A program made the translations under genes and the position numbers. 12,927 nt of DNA, taken from IMG/VR virus record IMGVR_UViG_2660237930_000001; one strand, 5' to 3'. Below are positions 2,692-12,927 of the stretch, piece by piece (position 1 is the stretch's first letter; each line of letters begins with the position of its first letter). Source of the stretch: a virus. Its lineage: Duplodnaviria; Heunggongvirae; Uroviricota; Caudoviricetes. Under the pieces are notes generated by a model that had not been told where the DNA came from, ran no database searches, and worked only from the letters and a program-made list of their open reading frames with translations.

Positions 2692-3211
2692 TCAGCAACC
2701 CCGGTATCAGTTCATCCAGCGCGGCTGCTTTGTTCATGGCTTTGATGATATCCCGTTTCAGGAAATCAACATGTCGGTTTTCCAGTTCCGGAAAACGCCG
2801 CTGCACCGACAGGGGGATCCCGTCGAGAATACTGGCAATTTCACCTGCGATACGCGACAGCACGAAAGTACAGAATGCGGTTTCCACCACTTCAGCGGAG
2901 TCTCTGGCATTTTTCAGCTCCTGTGCATCGGCCTGCGCACGCGTAAGTCGATGGCGTTCGTACTCAATAGTCCCTGGCTGGAGATCTGTCTCGCTGGCCT
3001 GCAGCAGTTCTTCAACCTCCCGGCGCAGCTTTTCGTTCTCAATTTCAGCATCCCTTTCGGCATACCATTTTATGACGGCGGCAGAGTCATAAAGCACCTC
3101 ATTACCCTTGCCACCGCCTCGCAGAACGGGCATTCCCTGTTCCTGCCAGTTCTGAATGGTACGGATACTCGCACCGAAAATGTCAGCCAGCTGCTTTTTG
3201 TTGACTTCCAT
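2666..3211 (-). CDS. Nu1: Terminase small subunit gpNu1
   Basis: 181-aa ORF MEVNKKQLADIFGASIRTIQNWQEQGMPV... matches lambda Nu1 (N-terminal DNA-binding region); lies immediately beside the cos site. Confidence 0.95.
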
Positions 3212-3878: not shown

Positions 3879-4172
3879 ATGAAAAAAATGTTGTTTTCTG
3901 CCGCTCTGGCAATGCTTATTACAGGATGTGCTCAACAGACGTTTACTGTTGGAAACAAACCGACAGCAGTAACACCAAAGGAAACCATCACCCATCATTT
4001 CTTCGTTTCGGGAATTGGACAGGAGAAAACTGTGGATGCAGCCAAAATTTGTGGCGGCGCAGAAAATGTTGTTAAAACAGAAACCCAGCAAACATTCGTA
4101 AATGGATTGCTCGGTTTTATTACTTTAGGCATTTATACTCCGCTGGAAGCGCGTGTCTATTGCTCACAATAA
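3879..4172 (+). CDS. bor: Bor lipoprotein (serum-resistance lipoprotein), lambda-type
   Basis: The 3831-4172 track ORF contains MKKMLFSAALAMLITGCAQQTFTV...EARVYCSQ; the ATG at 3879 gives a 97-aa protein with a lipobox (LITGC) matching lambda Bor as recalled. Opposite strand to the lysis genes, as in lambda. Confidence 0.9.
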   Translation: MKKMLFSAALAMLITGCAQQTFTVGNKPTAVTPKETITHHFFVSGIGQEKTVDAAKICGGAENVVKTETQQTFVNGLLGFITLGIYTPLEARVYCSQ

Positions 4173-4178
4173 TTGCAT

Positions 4179-4204
4179 GAGTTGCCCATCGATATGGGCA
4201 GCTC
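4179..4204. terminator. Hairpin between convergent bor and Rz (bidirectional terminator candidate)
   Basis: GAGTTGCCCAT-CGAT-ATGGGCAGCTC forms a stem of about 11 bp directly between the 3' ends of bor (+) and Rz (-); a similar hairpin is present at this position in lambda as I recall. Confidence 0.5.
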
Positions 4205-4665
4205 TATCTGCACTGCTCATTAATATACTTCTGGGTTCCTTCCAGTTGTTTTTGCATCGTGATCAGCCTCTCTCTGAGGGTGAAATAATCCCGTTCAGCG
4301 GTGTCTGCCAGTCGGGGGGAGGCTGCATTATCCACGCCGGAGGCGGTGGTGGCTTCACGCACTGACTGACAGACTGCTTTGATGTGCAACCGACGACGAC
4401 CAGCGGCAACATCATCACGCAGAGCATCATTTTCAGCTTTCGCATCAGCTAACTCCTTCGTGTATTTTGCATCGAGCGCAGCAACATCACGCTGACGCAT
4501 CTGCATGTCAGTAATTGCCGCATTCGCCAGCTTCAGTTCTCTGGCATTTTTGTCGCGCTGGGCTTTGTAGGTAATGGCGTTATCACGGTAATGATTAACA
4601 GTCCATAACAGGCAGACGATGATGCAGATGAGCAGAGCGGAGATAATCGCGGTTAACCGACTCAT
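4204..4665 (-). CDS. Rz: Spanin inner-membrane subunit Rz (i-spanin)
   Basis: The 4204-4794 track ORF contains [45 protein letters not shown]...KYINEQCR, matching lambda Rz (153 aa) from the ATG at 4665. The N-terminal extension in the track is read-through of the endolysin 3' end. Confidence 0.9.
4263..4445 (-). CDS. Rz1: Spanin outer-membrane lipoprotein subunit Rz1 (o-spanin), embedded in Rz in the +1 frame
   Basis: 60-aa [63 protein letters not shown]: lipobox (VVGC), proline-rich, entirely inside Rz, matching lambda Rz1 as recalled. Confidence 0.85.
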
Positions 4666-5590: not shown

Positions 5591-5630
5591 AGACTCAAAA
5601 AATGGAAAAACCCGCTCGACGGCGGGTTTA
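5591..5630 (-). terminator. Rho-independent terminator candidate for minus-strand transcription, about 140 bp upstream of S
   Basis: AAACCCGC-(loop)-GCGGGTTT stem (5608-5629); on the minus strand it is followed by TTCCATTTTTTGAG (U-rich). The plus-strand downstream sequence is not U-rich. Confidence 0.4.
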
Positions 5631-5700
5631 AGCTGTGTGACGAAGTAACCACTCTTAACAGCATAACCAATTTTTTACGTACGTAAACTACTAAATGATA

Positions 5701-5744
5701 TTTGTGAGAATGCAGACGGGGCTACTGATTTTTTGTGAGAATGC
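5701..5744. repeat. Two perfect 13-bp direct repeats TTTGTGAGAATGC (5701-5713 and 5732-5744), 31 bp start-to-start
   Basis: Read directly from the sequence; the flanks are also similar (CTAAATGATA / CTACTGATTT upstream). Lies in the AT-rich intergenic region between S (-) and the porin gene (+). Confidence 0.6.
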
Positions 5745-6004
5745 CACCGAGTGTTCAAAACACCACCACAAATACATAAGAAAACTTCAACAAATAACCA
5801 AATAACCAATGAATAATTTCCGATGTTATTTTTAGTTTGTTTAAATTAAGCTAAAGAATTATAGAGCGCTTATAAATAAGTGCCATTAATATAAATTAGC
5901 TAATAGATTTATTTTCGTTCAAACAAGAGCCATGAATAGGATTAGATAGAAAAGGTTCAGATAAAAATAGAGATCTACTTCACAAATTAAATGAGAAACT
6001 AAAA

Positions 6005-6024
6005 CTTACATCTTGAAATAATCG
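6005..6024 (+). promoter_or_regulatory. OmpR-box-like sequence upstream of the porin gene
   Basis: TTACATCTTGAAATAATC resembles the ompC C1 OmpR site (TTTACATTTTGAAACATCTA) as recalled; about 75-90 bp upstream of the porin start in a strongly AT-rich region. Confidence 0.3.
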
Positions 6025-6095
6025 CATTGATTAGATGAATATTTATCGCGCAGTGACATCATTTTTTAATAATAGTTCAAAAAAAAGGGCGTACA

Positions 6096-7178
6096 ATGAA
6101 AAAATTAACAGTGGCAATTTCTGCTGTAGCTGCATCAGTACTGATGGCGATGTCTGCTCAGGCAGCTGAAATTTATAATAAAGACAGTAACAAGCTGGAT
6201 CTATACGGGAAAGTTAATGCCAAGCACTACTTTTCCTCTAATGATGCAGATGATGGTGATACTACTTATGCCCGTCTTGGCTTCAAAGGTGAAACCCAAA
6301 TCAACGATCAACTGACTGGTTTCGGTCAGTGGGAATATGAATTCAAAGGCAACCGTGCTGAATCTCAAGGTTCTTCCAAAGACAAAACCCGTCTTGCATT
6401 TGCAGGCCTGAAATTTGGTGATTACGGCTCAATCGATTACGGCCGTAACTACGGTGTAGCATACGACATCGGTGCGTGGACTGACGTCCTGCCAGAATTC
6501 GGTGGTGATACCTGGACCCAAACAGATGTGTTCATGACTGGTCGCACTACTGGTGTTGCAACTTATCGTAACAACGACTTCTTTGGTCTGGTCGATGGCC
6601 TGAACTTTGCTGCTCAGTATCAGGGTAAAAATGACCGCACTGACGTAACTGAAGCCAACGGTGATGGTTTCGGTTTCTCCACTACTTATGAGTATGAAGG
6701 ATTCGGCGTGGGTGCAACCTATGCTAAATCAGATCGCACTGACGGTCAGGTCGCCTATGGTAAGAGCAAATTCAATGCCTCCGGCAAAAATGCGGAAGTA
6801 TGGGCTGCAGGCCTGAAATATGATGCGAACAATATCTATCTGGCTACCACATATTCTGAAACTCAGAATATGACCGTTTTTGGTAATAACCATATTGCAA
6901 ACAAAGCACAAAACTTTGAAGCAGTAGCACAATATCAGTTTGACTTCGGTCTGCGACCATCTGTTGCTTACCTTCAGTCAAAAGGTAAAGACCTTGGTGT
7001 TCATGGTGACCGAGACTTAGTCAAGTATGTCGATGTCGGTGCTACTTACTACTTTAATAAAAACATGTCCACTTTTGTTGATTACAAAATCAACTTAATT
7101 GACGATAGTAAGTTTACCAAAACAGCTGGTATTGATACCGACGACATCGTCGCTGTAGGTCTGGTTTATCAGTTCTAA
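6096..7178 (+). CDS. nmpC: Outer-membrane general porin of the OmpC/OmpF family (NmpC / phage Lc-type), prophage moron between Q and the lysis genes
   Basis: 360-aa ORF with signal peptide [30 protein letters not shown]..., porin hallmarks and C-terminal ...VGLVYQF. GGG Shine-Dalgarno 6 nt upstream. Opposite strand to the late genes, as for nmpC in DLP12 and lc in PA-2. Confidence 0.9.
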
Positions 7179-9338: not shown

Positions 9339-9723
9339 AAACGTCCCCGTTTAGCGCAGAAGTCACAGGAGTTGTTCAGGCTCCGGTGATACAATTATGG
9401 CGAATTGATTATTCATAATCAAACAAGATAAGGTCTCAAACTTCATGCAAGCCAAGATTTATTTCTGACAGAATTATACAAAGAAGCTATTGGTCAGAAT
9501 CTACTCGGACTGTAAAACATACGCATAACCTTAAGCTCTCACTTTAAGCATTGTTGAAATAATAGCCGTCAAGTACAACCTTAACCACGACTGGGATATT
9601 TCCCTAGCTACCACGAGTTGTACTGCTATTAAACTGCCGTTAAATTCAGTAAGAGAATTTCATCCGATAAGTCAAGGCATGTAAAACATAAAAATTAACA
9701 AGATATTATCATCTGCAACACTA

Positions 9724-10731
9724 TTGTATGGTATGTCAATGGCCATGTCGGTCGGGAGTTGTGCAACACCTGTCCAGACTAATTTTCCTGGTTACACCCC
9801 GGGTGCAGATATCATTAGTGTTTCACCCACCAGAAACCAGGTCGATCTCATTGGTGATGTTGTTTATTCCCAGATAAAAGGAACTCGTTCTGTCAGACAG
9901 CTTCACATGTCAGTTCTTGTCCCGCGAACAAATGATTTAAAACCAGCCATTATTTATTATCCCGGCGGCGGATTCATGTCTTCTGAACATGACAAATTTA
10001 TTGAAATGAGAATGGCTCTGGCTGAAGCTGGTTTTGTTGTGGCCGCTGTAGAATACAGAACAATTCCTGATACATTTCCAGCACCAGTTGAGGATGGGAA
10101 AGCTGCAATACGTTACTTGAGAGAACATGCCAGCGATTATGGGATTGATCCTCAAAGAATCGGAGTTCTGGGTGACTCTGCCGGTGGATGGCTTGCCCAG
10201 ATGATGGGAACTACAAATGGTGACAAAACCTTTAATAAAGGTGACTTTCTTCAGCAATCAGCAGATGTTCAGGCAGTTGCCACACTTTATGGGATTTCTG
10301 ACTTGTTGAATATTGGCGAGGGGTTCCCTGAATCAGTGCAGGAGGTTCATCGATCTCCTGCCGTAACCGAAGCCTTAATGATCAATGGCCCTGCATTCAG
10401 AAGTTTTGCGGGAGCCCCCATAACAGCGTCAAAAGAAAAAGCGCTAAACGCCAGTCCAATCGGACATATGAAAGGAGTAAAACCCCCATTTCTTATTATG
10501 CATGGTAGCAAAGACACTCTGGTTTCACCTGAGCAAAGCGCCAAACTATTCAGGATGTTGAAGAAGAACGGCGATAACGCTGAGTACGTTCTGGTAGAAG
10601 GGGCTGAGCATGGCGATAATACATGGTATCAGCCAATTATTATAAACAGAGTTGTTGAGTGGTTTACTAAAAACCTGGGAACCCCCATAAAAACCGCTAC
10701 CCAACAACAAAAAACAAACGCTGACCTGTAA
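9724..10731 (+). CDS. Alpha/beta-hydrolase fold esterase/lipase-like serine hydrolase (cargo gene); probable lipoprotein if translation starts further upstream (in-frame to 9688)
   Basis: 335-aa ORF with oxyanion-hole-like YYPGGGF, nucleophile elbow GDSAGG (G-x-S-x-G), and C-terminal IMHGSKDTLV and EGAEHGD consistent with a catalytic Asp and His. Visibly more AT-rich than the flanking phage genes (by eye, not computed). The 9724 start is a TTG; in-frame ATGs at 9733, 9739 and 9745. Confidence 0.8.
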   Translation: MYGMSMAMSVGSCATPVQTNFPGYTPGADIISVSPTRNQVDLIGDVVYSQIKGTRSVRQLHMSVLVPRTNDLKPAIIYYPGGGFMSSEHDKFIEMRMALAEAGFVVAAVEYRTIPDTFPAPVEDGKAAIRYLREHASDYGIDPQRIGVLGDSAGGWLAQMMGTTNGDKTFNKGDFLQQSADVQAVATLYGISDLLNIGEGFPESVQEVHRSPAVTEALMINGPAFRSFAGAPITASKEKALNASPIGHMKGVKPPFLIMHGSKDTLVSPEQSAKLFRMLKKNGDNAEYVLVEGAEHGDNTWYQPIIINRVVEWFTKNLGTPIKTATQQQKTNADL

Positions 10732-10734
10732 AAA

Positions 10735-10765
10735 GCAGCCCGCACTTATGCGGGCTAACCTATTT
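10735..10765 (+). terminator. Rho-independent terminator candidate after the hydrolase gene
   Basis: AGCCCGCA-CTTA-TGCGGGCT (8-bp stem) beginning about 5 nt after the stop, followed by a moderately T-rich CTATTTC. Confidence 0.5.
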
Positions 10766-10768
10766 CAC

Positions 10769-10795
10769 TCGATTCAAAAGAAATTATTTTTAATG
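10769..10795. repeat. Left copy of an imperfect direct repeat of about 27 bp (perfect 15-bp core AAATTATTTTTAATG at 10781-10795) flanking the recombinase gene
   Basis: TCGATTCAAAAGAAATTATTTTTAATG here versus TCGTTTAAAAACAAATTATTTTTAATG at 12842-12868, same orientation. Confidence 0.6.
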
Positions 10796-11080
10796 GGGGC
10801 GTGACCAGCCTCTCGGTGCTCAGATACTTAATGAAGTGGAGTGGCATTCAGGCAAGAGGTTAACATCACCTGTTCGCCATAACCAAGCACGTGCACAAAG
10901 TTTGTTATCAGTGAATTGTTTTGTGATTGGGTATTGTTGAGCTACTAGAGCAAGAATGCCAACATCCAGTGGCAGTGCCTATAGTAAAACTATAGCTCAG
11001 GGCGCTTCGTTCAAGATAGTTAATATCATATTAGTCACTTTACTTTCATACCATAGCACGGTTGAAAAAGTGATTATTAC

Positions 11081-12607
11081 TCAAAAATAAATCTCACCAT
11101 CAACCATATATTTAAGAGTACTTATCGCCTGCTGGGCGGATATTACTTTCATTAAAGGATAGTGTTTAAAAACAATGCCATTCATAAAATAGATATCACA
11201 GGTTTTATTATCTGTATTAATTATAATTTTTTCGAATATTTTATAGGCAAGTGTACGACATAGCTCTCGCCCATTTTTACTGGTTAAATCAATAGCATGA
11301 AAATCACCAAGTGAACTCACCCCTTTACTCTTCAAAGTTTTTAATGATACCGAAGCCCTTCGTAATTCCTTATCTAATAGTCTTATTTTCTCTGCTATAG
11401 CGGTAACTTCAGGCGCGACAGACAATGCAACGATTAAATTATTAATTTTCATCTGAAGCTCAATAATTTTTAACTCTAAAGTTTCATTAGCATCTTTCTT
11501 GTTTTCAACTGGTTGAATTTTGCTACAATTAAAAAGCAATTCATTAATGATATTATAATCAACCAAATCTCTTTTTATTGATGGTCTGTCACATCGATGT
11601 AATCTTCTCATCGGACAAACATAATAGCCATGCAAACTTCCAGATACCGCATGAACAATCATGGTATTACCACAAGCCTCACACTTCATAACTGTTCGAA
11701 GTAGATTTATTAGCATAGGATTCTTGCTACTATTGCTAATACCAAAAGGTGCCAACCGAATTTCCTGTACAGCGTAAAACAAATCATCTGATATGACTCT
11801 GGGATAATAGCCAGCGATTTCACTTATCCCTTTCCCTCTTGCACGATATGAAGGTACGCATATACCTATCAGAGCTTTATTCGCTAATAATTTTTCAATT
11901 ACAGAAGGTCCCCATGCACTTTCTTTTCCTGAGAAATTCTTTACAGCATGATCATTTAAATACTTGGCTATTGCATTCAATGAGCGCCTTTCCATCCTGA
12001 GTTTAAAAATTAGCTCAATAGTTTTCACCCTGTCGGGGTCTGGAACAAAAGCCGTTCTTTTGTCATCCAATGAGAGCCATCTCGGACAAGAAGCCGTCAT
12101 AATCGTGCCTGACTCCAGTGCATCCTGCCGTTTTTTCTTCCATGATAATTTAACCCGACTTGACTTTATCTCGCTTTCTTCATTTGCCCTTTGTGCTATA
12201 AGTATGGCTTTTATTAATGAATATGGCTCATTCAATGAGTCAATATTATAGACTGTATTATCGCAAAGAGTTATAACATCAATACCGTGATTCAAAATCA
12301 ATTTCAGACGCTCAATCGCTTCACCGACTTTTTCTCTTGAAAGTCTGTCCAGACTTTCAACTAACAATGTAGTCCCTGGCAATATATAACCATGTTCTAT
12401 AGCATCTAAAAATTCCGAAAAAGCTCCTGATTGTGCATGCTTTCCATTGAATGCGCTTAACCCCAAATCTTCATACGTTACGGTATCAAGGTAATAATCA
12501 CTATTTACCTTTAGCCATTCAGTAATAAGCCTTCTCTGGCGGTTTAATGAATCACCAGACATCTGACCTGGTGATGAAAATCGCATATATGCTATGGCTT
12601 TTTTCAT
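11081..12607 (-). CDS. ybcK: Large serine recombinase (resolvase/invertase-type N-terminal catalytic domain, recombinase domain, Cys-rich zinc-ribbon region)
   Basis: 508-aa ORF. N-terminus AIAYMRFSSPGQMSGDSLNRQ is typical of the serine-recombinase catalytic domain (nucleophilic Ser in RFSS); Cys cluster C-x2-C ... C-x5-C in the middle. AGGTG Shine-Dalgarno 5 nt upstream. Very AT-rich. Size and position resemble DLP12 YbcK, but the symbol is assigned from memory. Confidence 0.85.
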   Translation of the reverse strand: MKKAIAYMRFSSPGQMSGDSLNRQRRLITEWLKVNSDYYLDTVTYEDLGLSAFNGKHAQSGAFSEFLDAIEHGYILPGTTLLVESLDRLSREKVGEAIERLKLILNHGIDVITLCDNTVYNIDSLNEPYSLIKAILIAQRANEESEIKSSRVKLSWKKKRQDALESGTIMTASCPRWLSLDDKRTAFVPDPDRVKTIELIFKLRMERRSLNAIAKYLNDHAVKNFSGKESAWGPSVIEKLLANKALIGICVPSYRARGKGISEIAGYYPRVISDDLFYAVQEIRLAPFGISNSSKNPMLINLLRTVMKCEACGNTMIVHAVSGSLHGYYVCPMRRLHRCDRPSIKRDLVDYNIINELLFNCSKIQPVENKKDANETLELKIIELQMKINNLIVALSVAPEVTAIAEKIRLLDKELRRASVSLKTLKSKGVSSLGDFHAIDLTSKNGRELCRTLAYKIFEKIIINTDNKTCDIYFMNGIVFKHYPLMKVISAQQAISTLKYMVDGEIYF

Positions 12608-12841
12608 GGTGACACCTGCTAAAGTATGCTTTTATAAACCTTAGTGGTGAGATATGATTTTTGTTTAATTTTTATTTAAAAAGACAATTAAGGTCACATT
12701 ATCTTGAATATACAACAATAATCGCATTGCAATTTTCTTACACCATAATCTTGAAAGCACAAAAGAATGAATAAAAACTAAAGACATTAACAAAAAGCAT
12801 AAAACGAGGCCCATATAAATATACGAGCCTCCATATTTTAG

Positions 12842-12868
12842 TCGTTTAAAAACAAATTATTTTTAATG
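12842..12868. repeat. Right copy of the direct repeat flanking the recombinase gene (core 12854-12868)
   Basis: See the left copy; the two cores are 2073 bp apart and bracket the recombinase ORF with its upstream region. Confidence 0.6.
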
Positions 12869-12927
12869 TGGTGTGCTTCGTGACAATAAATTAATAACCA
12901 ACACACCGGCACAAATCAACATCATGC

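Follow-up and report, generated by a model that had tools for sequence, protein, structure and literature searches.

The DNA analysed here (the window, 12,927 nucleotides) carries a gene for a large serine recombinase, ybcK, that lies between two copies of a direct repeat. This arrangement raises the question of whether the copies are sites at which the recombinase acts, as the original prediction proposed for an excisable unit, or whether they mark the boundary of a cassette, which was offered as the weaker alternative.

The window belongs to a DLP12/lambda-like E. coli prophage that encodes Bet/Exo/Gam, and it is 100% identical to strain UPEC132. The ybcK gene occupies positions 11081-12607 on the minus strand, and the Pfam domains Resolvase, Recombinase and Zn_ribbon_recom together with the catalytic motifs YMRFSSPGQ and DRLSR bear out the assignment of its 508-aa product as a large serine recombinase. 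Between ybcK and emrE, also on the minus strand, is a small ylcJ-like ORF of 49 aa (12665-12814), which is a CDS in UPEC132 and is annotated ylcJ at the same position in K-12; no family match was obtained for it. The 3' end of emrE, encoding an SMR efflux transporter, was identified by translation and from the UPEC132 annotation (12863-12927, minus strand); it ends in MMLICAGVLVINLLSRSTPH followed by a stop codon at 12863-12865, and the gene runs past the end of the window. On the other side of ybcK we found an internal fragment of a Rha/P22AR-type antirepressor gene (Rha', about 170 nt, 10803 to ~10974, minus strand), a pseudogene remnant truncated at both ends. Beyond it lies a cargo gene for an alpha/beta hydrolase (9724-10731, plus strand), classed by Pfam and NCBIfam as a BD-FAE/Abhydrolase_3 esterase and convergent with both ybcK and emrE.

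The repeat itself was confirmed. The exact 15-mer AAATTATTTTTAATG is present on the same strand at 10781-10795 and 12854-12868, 2,073 bp apart, with the left copy 285 nt past the ybcK stop (11081) and the right copy 246 nt upstream of the ybcK start (12607), in agreement with the positions, orientation and distances originally described. The best 27-nt segment, starting at 10769, is identical at 24/27 positions as had been reported, though the similarity is longer than described and spans 52 nt at 77% identity (10747-10798 versus 12820-12871). The length of about 2.07 kb given for the intervening segment was likewise accurate, but its description as a single recombinase gene was not, because the segment also contains the ylcJ-like ORF, a terminator and the Rha' fragment.

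In a region of 31-43% GC, a chance match between AT-rich intergenic sequences has to be considered, and Markov simulations of the 3.5-kb region did yield an exact 15-mer direct repeat in 9 of 500 runs. However, only two sites in the window match AAATTATTTTTAATG with two or fewer mismatches, against 0.13 expected, and the 34 nt to the left of the core match in register at 23/34 positions, a similarity that random 34-nt pairs drawn from this AT-rich region reached with a frequency of 1.6e-5. Together with terminators at equal offsets in both copies and a graded series of alleles that links them, both described below, the flank identity leads us to reject chance similarity, which we regard as having a negligible probability. 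Duplication of a transposon target site was also rejected, because such duplications are expected to be short and identical whereas these copies are long and diverged; the inverted-repeat list contained no terminal inverted repeats at the segment ends.

What the two copies have in common is the 3' end of emrE. The right copy (R-type, 12820-12871, minus strand) comprises the last emrE codons and stop, overlapping the exact core, and then a spacer (about 30 nt) and the beginning of a terminator. The left copy (L-type, 10747-10798, minus strand) translates as ...SRPH* on the same strand as emrE and retains, as relics of emrE, a His codon and a stop, followed by a spacer and an allele of the terminator. 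A terminator scan placed minus-strand intrinsic terminators at the same offset from the stop in both copies, at 10757-10736 (-20.6 kcal/mol) and 12831-12806 (-19.3 kcal/mol, z = -3.4). Each has the hairpin, the U-tract and the position just past a stop on the coding strand that define Rho-independent terminators. The R-type allele has an 11-pair stem followed by GTTTTATGCT; the L-type allele is the GC-rich hairpin GCCCGCA CTTA TGCGGGC, scored on the minus strand as 9 pairs followed by CTTTTT. The L-type hairpin folds on both strands and is predicted to double here as the terminator of the convergent hydrolase gene, acting bidirectionally.

Both types of flank are found on intact emrE genes elsewhere. 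The R-type flank also follows emrE in DLP12 of K-12 and in PCP06021. An identical L-type flank is present in E. coli F467, in Rb-50 and in IMG/VR loci of an "empty" type, in which emrE adjoins the hydrolase gene and ybcK is missing, with close relatives in Escherichia sp. MOD1-EC7003 and E. ruysiae. The chromosomal emrE of E. ruysiae adjoins folD/cysS, has no recombinase nearby and carries an L-type spacer with a hairpin resembling the R-type; here the L-type flank occurs on emrE genes that never had the hydrolase gene or ybcK close by. The observed series of alleles on intact emrE genes thereby connects the L-type and R-type copies. Sequence comparison thus indicates that the two copies are homologous by descent, as diverged emrE 3' ends (His codon, stop, spacer of about 30 nt and Rho-independent terminator), and the perfect 15-bp core is the part of the emrE end that is invariant between the alleles. 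We also considered whether the left copy is the relic of a longer emrE-like pseudogene, and rejected this because emrE homology stops at the His codon; an apparent CGTGAC match that would extend the homology needs a 6-nt gap and is unconvincing.

The left copy ends at a mosaic joint. Homology to the emrE flank stops at 10798, and homology to the Rha' of other ybcK loci starts abruptly at 10803. The novel joint at which the truncated emrE tail meets the Rha' fragment, GGGGCGT (10796-10802), consists of 7 nt that can be assigned to neither parent. Its sequence is identical in 14 of 14 occupied IMG/VR contigs, and this identity throughout the occupied loci indicates one event. The Rha' fragment is 83% identical to a P22AR C-terminal-domain CDS that adjoins ybcK in PCP06021 and 77% identical to internal sequence of Rha in phage PhiR26_1, where the gene is intact; PCP06021 and 55989 have a longer fragment that covers all of it. 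Among the 80 IMG/VR loci and the E. coli genomes, the exact Rha' allele of the window was absent outside window-type (hydrolase + ybcK) loci, and the best matches were about 83-90% identical; thus the immediate right-hand parent is not among the loci sampled.

Since the copies are alleles of the emrE end and the core is their invariant part, we conclude that the repeat is very probably the scar of a modular exchange, produced by one illegitimate crossover between an emrE-ylcJ-ybcK-Rha' module and an emrE/hydrolase module. The repeat would therefore play no role in YbcK action, and its copies would not be recombinase sites; the weaker alternative of a cassette boundary proved to be right, with the joint at 10796-10802 lying between the hydrolase and ybcK modules. 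Both parental arrangements are observed. The first parent would have had the common arrangement, ren-emrE(R-type terminator)-ylcJ-ybcK-Rha' fragment, and the second ren-emrE(L-type terminator) convergent with the alpha/beta hydrolase gene. We infer the order of events and the crossover mechanism as follows. A single illegitimate crossover would have joined the Rha' fragment (10803) to the emrE end of the second parent at the His codon (10796-10798). The recombinant would retain emrE-ylcJ-ybcK-Rha' from the first parent and, from the second, only the last emrE codon, stop and terminator with the hydrolase and nin genes.

This reading places the locus among the novel joints, or module boundaries, of mosaic lambdoid phage genomes, as treated under the modular genome hypothesis in PMC9836094, PMC2327257 and PMC3945230. 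As in other lambdoid joints, homology breaks abruptly at or near gene ends and both sides of the joint are found with other neighbours elsewhere. A truncated gene fragment lies at the joint, which falls in the stretch of variable cargo that separates ren from the nin genes. The prophage also carries Red genes, whose products are described in PMC2327257 as promoting recombination between short or diverged sequences and as implicated in phage mosaicism. Unlike typical novel joints, the crossover here lies at the last codon of a gene common to both parents, and the window keeps two diverged emrE-end alleles that bracket the recombinase gene and so mimic a pair of att sites.

The original prediction proposed a search for genomes missing precisely the DNA between the repeats, and such genomes do exist. 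In 2 complete genomes, 4 IMG/VR contigs and 2 metagenome contigs we identified empty loci of the E. coli type, eight in all, in which emrE directly adjoins the hydrolase gene without ybcK. The complete genomes are F467, with the locus at argU, and Rb-50, with the locus near dsdC, and their prophages encode Bet/Exo. The empty junction is exactly left flank, core and right flank, as predicted for a deletion junction between the two copies. This junction is also the expected product of deletion or of site-specific excision within the core; thus the direction of change has to be judged from haplotypes and distribution.

A single emrE haplotype, marked by three private SNPs that never occur with ybcK, is common to all eight of the empty E. 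coli-type loci, and the empty arrangement recurs in Escherichia sp. MOD1-EC7003 with 95.7% identity in the hydrolase gene and 94.8% in emrE. Given this private, shared haplotype and the presence of the arrangement in a second species at about 95% identity, the empty loci look parental rather than like excision products. Over 402 nt the emrE haplotype of the window, in contrast, matches exactly that of 8 Rha'-type ybcK loci, which lack the hydrolase gene. A metagenome search for empty junctions with the occupied-type emrE allele (C at CGTGAC/AAAT) found none, and both matches carried the empty-specific allele. Additionally, the window hydrolase gene is 99.3-99.4% identical to that of the empty type as opposed to 97.3-97.7% to an inverse-autotransporter type; the gene was found in three neighbourhoods, with emrE and the inverse autotransporter among its neighbours.

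These haplotypes bear on the possibility that the occupied arrangement is the older one and that empty loci arose by deletion between the copies. The 15-bp core would then have allowed RecA-independent slippage or Red-mediated annealing, and the repeat would be a passive deletion hotspot that removes ybcK. The exact form of the empty junction and the presence of Bet/Exo in the prophages would suit such a process, given the activity of Red on short or diverged homology described in PMC2327257. We nevertheless consider it unlikely. The three SNPs of the single empty haplotype are absent from every occupied locus, and one private haplotype in all of the empty E. coli loci gives no indication of recurrent deletion. 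Furthermore, the empty arrangement is found at about 5% divergence in another Escherichia species. Deletion also leaves the origin of the left copy unexplained; the L-type flank occurs on emrE genes never near the hydrolase gene or ybcK.

The distribution of ybcK points the same way as the haplotypes with respect to integration. About one complete E. coli genome in four carries the gene, which always adjoins emrE. A second repeat copy accompanies it in 172 of about 1,398 ybcK-positive E. coli genomes and in 10-11 of 80 IMG/VR loci, and only the hydrolase sublineage brackets ybcK. Besides UPEC132, strain LF82 and the phages 4A7, Perceval and PhiR47_2 have the arrangement of the window. The emrE-side copy alone is present in 59 of the 80 IMG/VR loci, in K-12, in PCP06021 and in the common Rha'-type loci. 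About 88% of ybcK loci have one copy only. By downstream type, the IMG/VR loci comprise 22 of the K-12 type, about 46 of the Rha' type and 11 of the window type; elsewhere the neighbours of ybcK are ybcL/ybcM or longer Rha' fragments. In DLP12 of K-12 (emrE-ylcJ-ybcK-ybcL-ybcM), emrE, ylcJ and ybcK are 97-99% identical to those of the window and lie in the same order between ren and ylcH/ybcN. DLP12 differs in having only one emrE terminator and in carrying ybcL-ybcM downstream of ybcK; the window instead has the Rha' fragment, a relic second emrE end and the alpha/beta hydrolase gene.

The elements integrated by large serine recombinases, such as phiC31, Bxb1, A118 and SPbeta SprA, provide the closest test of the excisable unit. 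CcrAB/SCCmec is a further large-serine-recombinase element for comparison. The recombination sites of these enzymes are about 40-50 bp long and consist of imperfectly inverted half-sites around a central dinucleotide. As in such elements, direct repeats enclose the recombinase gene in the window, one of the two extends over the end of a host-like gene (its 3' end), and loci without exactly the intervening DNA exist. Under this reading the repeats would be attL and attR of a 2.07-kb mini-element (ylcJ-ybcK-Rha') integrated by YbcK into an attB at the 3' end of emrE, with the element arm restoring the emrE stop region as in other elements that target 3' ends, and empty loci would be unoccupied attB sites. 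The three recombinase domains, the intact catalytic motifs and the purifying selection on YbcK are in keeping with it, as are the empty loci with exactly the predicted junction. A second presence/absence polymorphism of ybcK, between the K-12 and Nissle types, also has its right end about 9 nt past the emrE stop.

However, the locus departs from such elements in most other respects. The hypothetical attB, attP, attL and attR have no dyad symmetry (best 9-12/22 positions; null mean 9.8 and 95th percentile 12 for the same region) and hence lack half-site structure. Instead, the flanks are homologous over about 70 nt as alleles of one terminator, and the supposed arm beside ylcJ is itself a homologue of the emrE terminator with intermediate alleles on recombinase-free emrE genes. 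The repeats do not accompany ybcK everywhere, most copies lacking the second one, and the ends are neither defined nor conserved: the supposed end in the window is a piece from the interior of a gene that extends further in other loci, and the left end of the K-12/Nissle indel is unrelated to that of the window indel. Unoccupied sites exist, but their emrE haplotype is private while the occupied haplotype is that of single-copy ybcK loci, which speaks against integration into the empty site. The empty arrangement in another Escherichia species likewise counts against the excisable unit. Moreover, serine integrases require a recombination directionality factor for attL x attR recombination, according to PMC3783163 and PMC12286644, and we identified no candidate for one. 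Based on these results, the excisable unit with the repeats as its recombinase sites is not supported, and we regard integration by YbcK as highly improbable. We give equally little credence to a broader version, in which YbcK is or recently was an integrase targeting the emrE stop region, the ylcJ-ybcK cassette entered emrE modules more than once (window/empty and K-12/Nissle types) and the far ends were eroded by later recombination; if true, it would supply a substrate for the orphan recombinase that is conserved in DLP12.

The modular exchange that we favour would leave an ordinary recombination scar, and for DLP12-like prophages the locus documents a mosaic joint to the nucleotide within the ren-nin cargo region. 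It is important to realize that genomes lacking exactly the intervening DNA, combined with direct repeats on either side of a recombinase gene, resemble textbook evidence for a mobile cassette. The allele series and haplotype linkage observed at this locus indicate that a single illegitimate crossover between two phage modules sharing a gene can leave the same pattern. Our results remove one candidate substrate of YbcK and supply no replacement.

With respect to YbcK itself, a search of the PDB by sequence returned nothing at E <= 0.001, and NCBIfam gave only a far sub-threshold match to XisF. A PADLOC scan of YbcK and the hydrolase for defence systems gave no matches, leaving a defence-system reading unsupported, and no functional study of YbcK as a recombinase was found among the titles and abstracts returned by a literature search. 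The gene was nonetheless intact in 93 of 93 copies, with a median dN/dS of 0.07, a value that indicates strong purifying selection on YbcK.

The window comes from an E. coli prophage of the DLP12/lambda-like kind and carries its direct repeat in a stretch (9400-12927) that is 100% identical to strain UPEC132, where the prophage adjoins icd and encodes its own tyrosine integrase and excisionase. On the minus strand, replication P and a ren-like gene are followed by emrE, a 49-aa ylcJ-like ORF and ybcK. Past ybcK lies an alpha/beta hydrolase on the plus strand, followed on the minus strand by ylcH, ybcN, ninE, ybcO, rusA, ylcG and quuD. The emrE-ylcJ-ybcK block is shared with K-12 DLP12, where ybcL-ybcM come next.

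The 15-mer of the original prediction, AAATTATTTTTAATG, is present at 10781-10795 and 12854-12868, and no third site occurs in the window at up to 2 mismatches (0.13 expected). The predicted extended match of about 24 of 27 positions was also confirmed, with 24 identities in the best 27-nt stretch. The similarity is in fact longer, covering 52 nt at 77% identity (10747-10798 versus 12820-12871). Left of the core, 23 of 34 nt are identical; pairs drawn at random from this AT-rich region reach that value at a frequency of only 1.6e-5, which makes a chance match hardly conceivable. We conclude that the repeat is real.

The right copy overlaps the 3' end of emrE on the minus strand (...LLSRSTPH, stop at 12863-12865), and the stop is followed by a spacer of ~30 nt and an intrinsic terminator (12831-12806). 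The left copy is organized likewise on this strand: a His codon and stop (...SRPH*) precede a spacer, and then comes a GC-rich terminator (10757-10736) that also ends the convergent hydrolase gene. This shared stop-spacer-terminator layout indicates that each copy is an emrE 3' end plus the emrE terminator. Three collections, among them GTDB species representatives and IMG/VR, were queried with a 30-nt pattern taken from the left copy. Among the GTDB representatives, the left-type flank was found on intact emrE in Escherichia ruysiae and Escherichia sp. MOD1-EC7003, with ybcK absent within the emrE locus of both. In IMG/VR the pattern matched 18 contigs, 14 with the window's joint and 4 with emrE directly attached. 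Judged from these matches, the left-type sequence is one of the naturally occurring allelic forms of the emrE flank. The E. ruysiae emrE (NZ_CABVLQ010000001.1, 2699-3109) is chromosomal rather than prophage-borne, with folD, a YdjM-family gene and cysS as neighbors, and this setting may be nearer to where emrE came from originally. Its flank, with a right-type-like terminator stem and a left-type spacer, is intermediate between the two window copies, and thus the emrE flank alleles form a graded series.

Counting ybcK as present at a length coverage of at least 80%, we found it in 1,398 of 5,426 complete E. coli genomes, 172 of which have the window arrangement. Of 80 ybcK loci in IMG/VR, 59 carry the emrE-side copy alone and 10-11 carry both; by downstream DNA, 22 are of the K-12 type, about 46 are followed by a fragment of a Rha/P22AR antirepressor gene (Rha'), and 11 are of the window type. 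Since two copies occur in only a minority of ybcK loci, the bracket belongs to one sublineage and not to ybcK. In all annotated loci inspected, ybcK sits directly downstream of emrE.

The copies had been proposed as recombination sites of an excisable ybcK module, a reading that is not supported. The hypothetical attB, attP, attL and attR sites lack dyad symmetry above background (best 9-12 of 22; null mean 9.8, 95th percentile 12). Serine integrases are described as using short sites of about 40-50 bp and requiring a directionality factor for attL x attR (PMC12286644, PMC3783163), and no such factor is evident here. It is very improbable that the two copies are an att pair of YbcK. A second ybcK presence/absence polymorphism was found in about 2,284 complete E. 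coli genomes, including Nissle 1917, which carry the four-gene prophage remnant fliE-emrE-ybcL-ybcM-ompC-yedK, with emrE at about 92% identity. Compared with K-12 DLP12 (locus L004, 4656-6738), the Nissle locus (NZ_CM189243.1, 832105-842521) lacks 2,083 bp, with ylcJ-ybcK missing. The emrE-side (right) end of this indel is located about 9 nt beyond the emrE stop, at the same place as the edge of the core in the window, as expected if emrE is a homologous anchor for exchanges. Immediately inside their left ends the K-12 and window indels have unrelated sequences, and hence they do not represent a single defined element inserted twice.

Genomes lacking the segment between the repeats do exist. 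The junction predicted after its loss, used as query, aligned unbroken and at 99.3-99.5% identity to two complete E. coli genomes, F467 (prophage at argU) and Rb-50 (prophage near dsdC/torI). Both have a ren-like gene, emrE and the convergent hydrolase, with ylcJ and ybcK absent. A metagenome scan added 2 further empty contigs, and Escherichia sp. MOD1-EC7003 is organized in this way too, at about 95% identity. Repeat-mediated deletion could have generated such loci, but all eight E. coli-type empty loci share a single emrE haplotype (402 nt right of the core) with 3 private SNPs never found beside ybcK, which renders deletion unlikely. The window emrE haplotype is instead shared, without differences, by 8 loci that have a longer Rha' fragment after ybcK and no hydrolase, and E. 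coli 55989, of this arrangement, has the same EmrE protein. For the window hydrolase, identity is 99.3-99.4% to the empty-type form and 97.3-97.7% to the form found beside an inverse autotransporter. Together these sequences indicate that the empty loci are parental and not excision products. Haplotypes and identities point to a Rha'-type parent for the emrE/ybcK side and an empty-type parent for the hydrolase side, including the emrE-terminator relic.

Homology to the Rha/P22AR sequence that adjoins ybcK at other loci sets in abruptly at 10803, and emrE-flank homology stops at 10798, with 7 nt (GGGGCGT) of ambiguous parentage between them. The window's Rha' (10803 to about 10974) is 83% identical to that of PCP06021 and 77% identical to an internal part of the intact phage PhiR26_1 Rha gene. 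As a subset of the longer PCP06021/55989 fragment, it reflects a second truncation. The joint is identical in all occupied contigs, which points to one event. Very probably, and as the most likely history, the window would carry the scar of one illegitimate crossover that involved two co-resident lambdoid genomes. The exchange would have joined the Rha' fragment of an emrE-ylcJ-ybcK-Rha' module to the last emrE codon of an emrE/hydrolase module, and the recombinant would retain two diverged alleles of the emrE end as a direct repeat. These phages encode Bet/Exo/Gam, and Red-type recombination of diverged sequences has been documented as a route to phage mosaicism (PMC2327257, PMC3945230). Convincing homology was not found at the left joint, and the window's exact Rha' allele was absent from every sampled hydrolase-free Rha'-type locus.

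All 93 fetched copies of ybcK (11081-12607, minus strand) are intact, and their 48 distinct alleles have a median pairwise dN/dS of 0.07, indicating strong purifying selection on this large serine recombinase. YbcK had no relative in the PDB by phmmer sequence search and no match in PADLOC, and a title/abstract-level literature search found no functional study. The BD-FAE-type hydrolase gene (9724-10731, plus strand) has three alternative neighbors within a single ren-nin cargo slot: ybcK in 172 genomes, emrE in 2 and, in about 500, a convergent 1,302-aa intimin/invasin-like inverse autotransporter. Its haplotypes show within-gene recombination between neighborhood types. In PhiR26_1 (locus L002, 17742-19244), the slot between ren and ybcN holds a defense gene annotated PD-lambda-1 and the intact Rha gene, suggesting that the ren-nin interval acts as a cargo/defense hotspot in these phages. 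Elsewhere in the window, an iss/bor lipoprotein gene lies near 3919-4212, and a very AT-rich segment (5600-6200, about 30% GC) precedes an ompC/nmpC-like porin gene (6096-7178, UPEC132 annotation) on the plus strand, opposite to the surrounding late genes.
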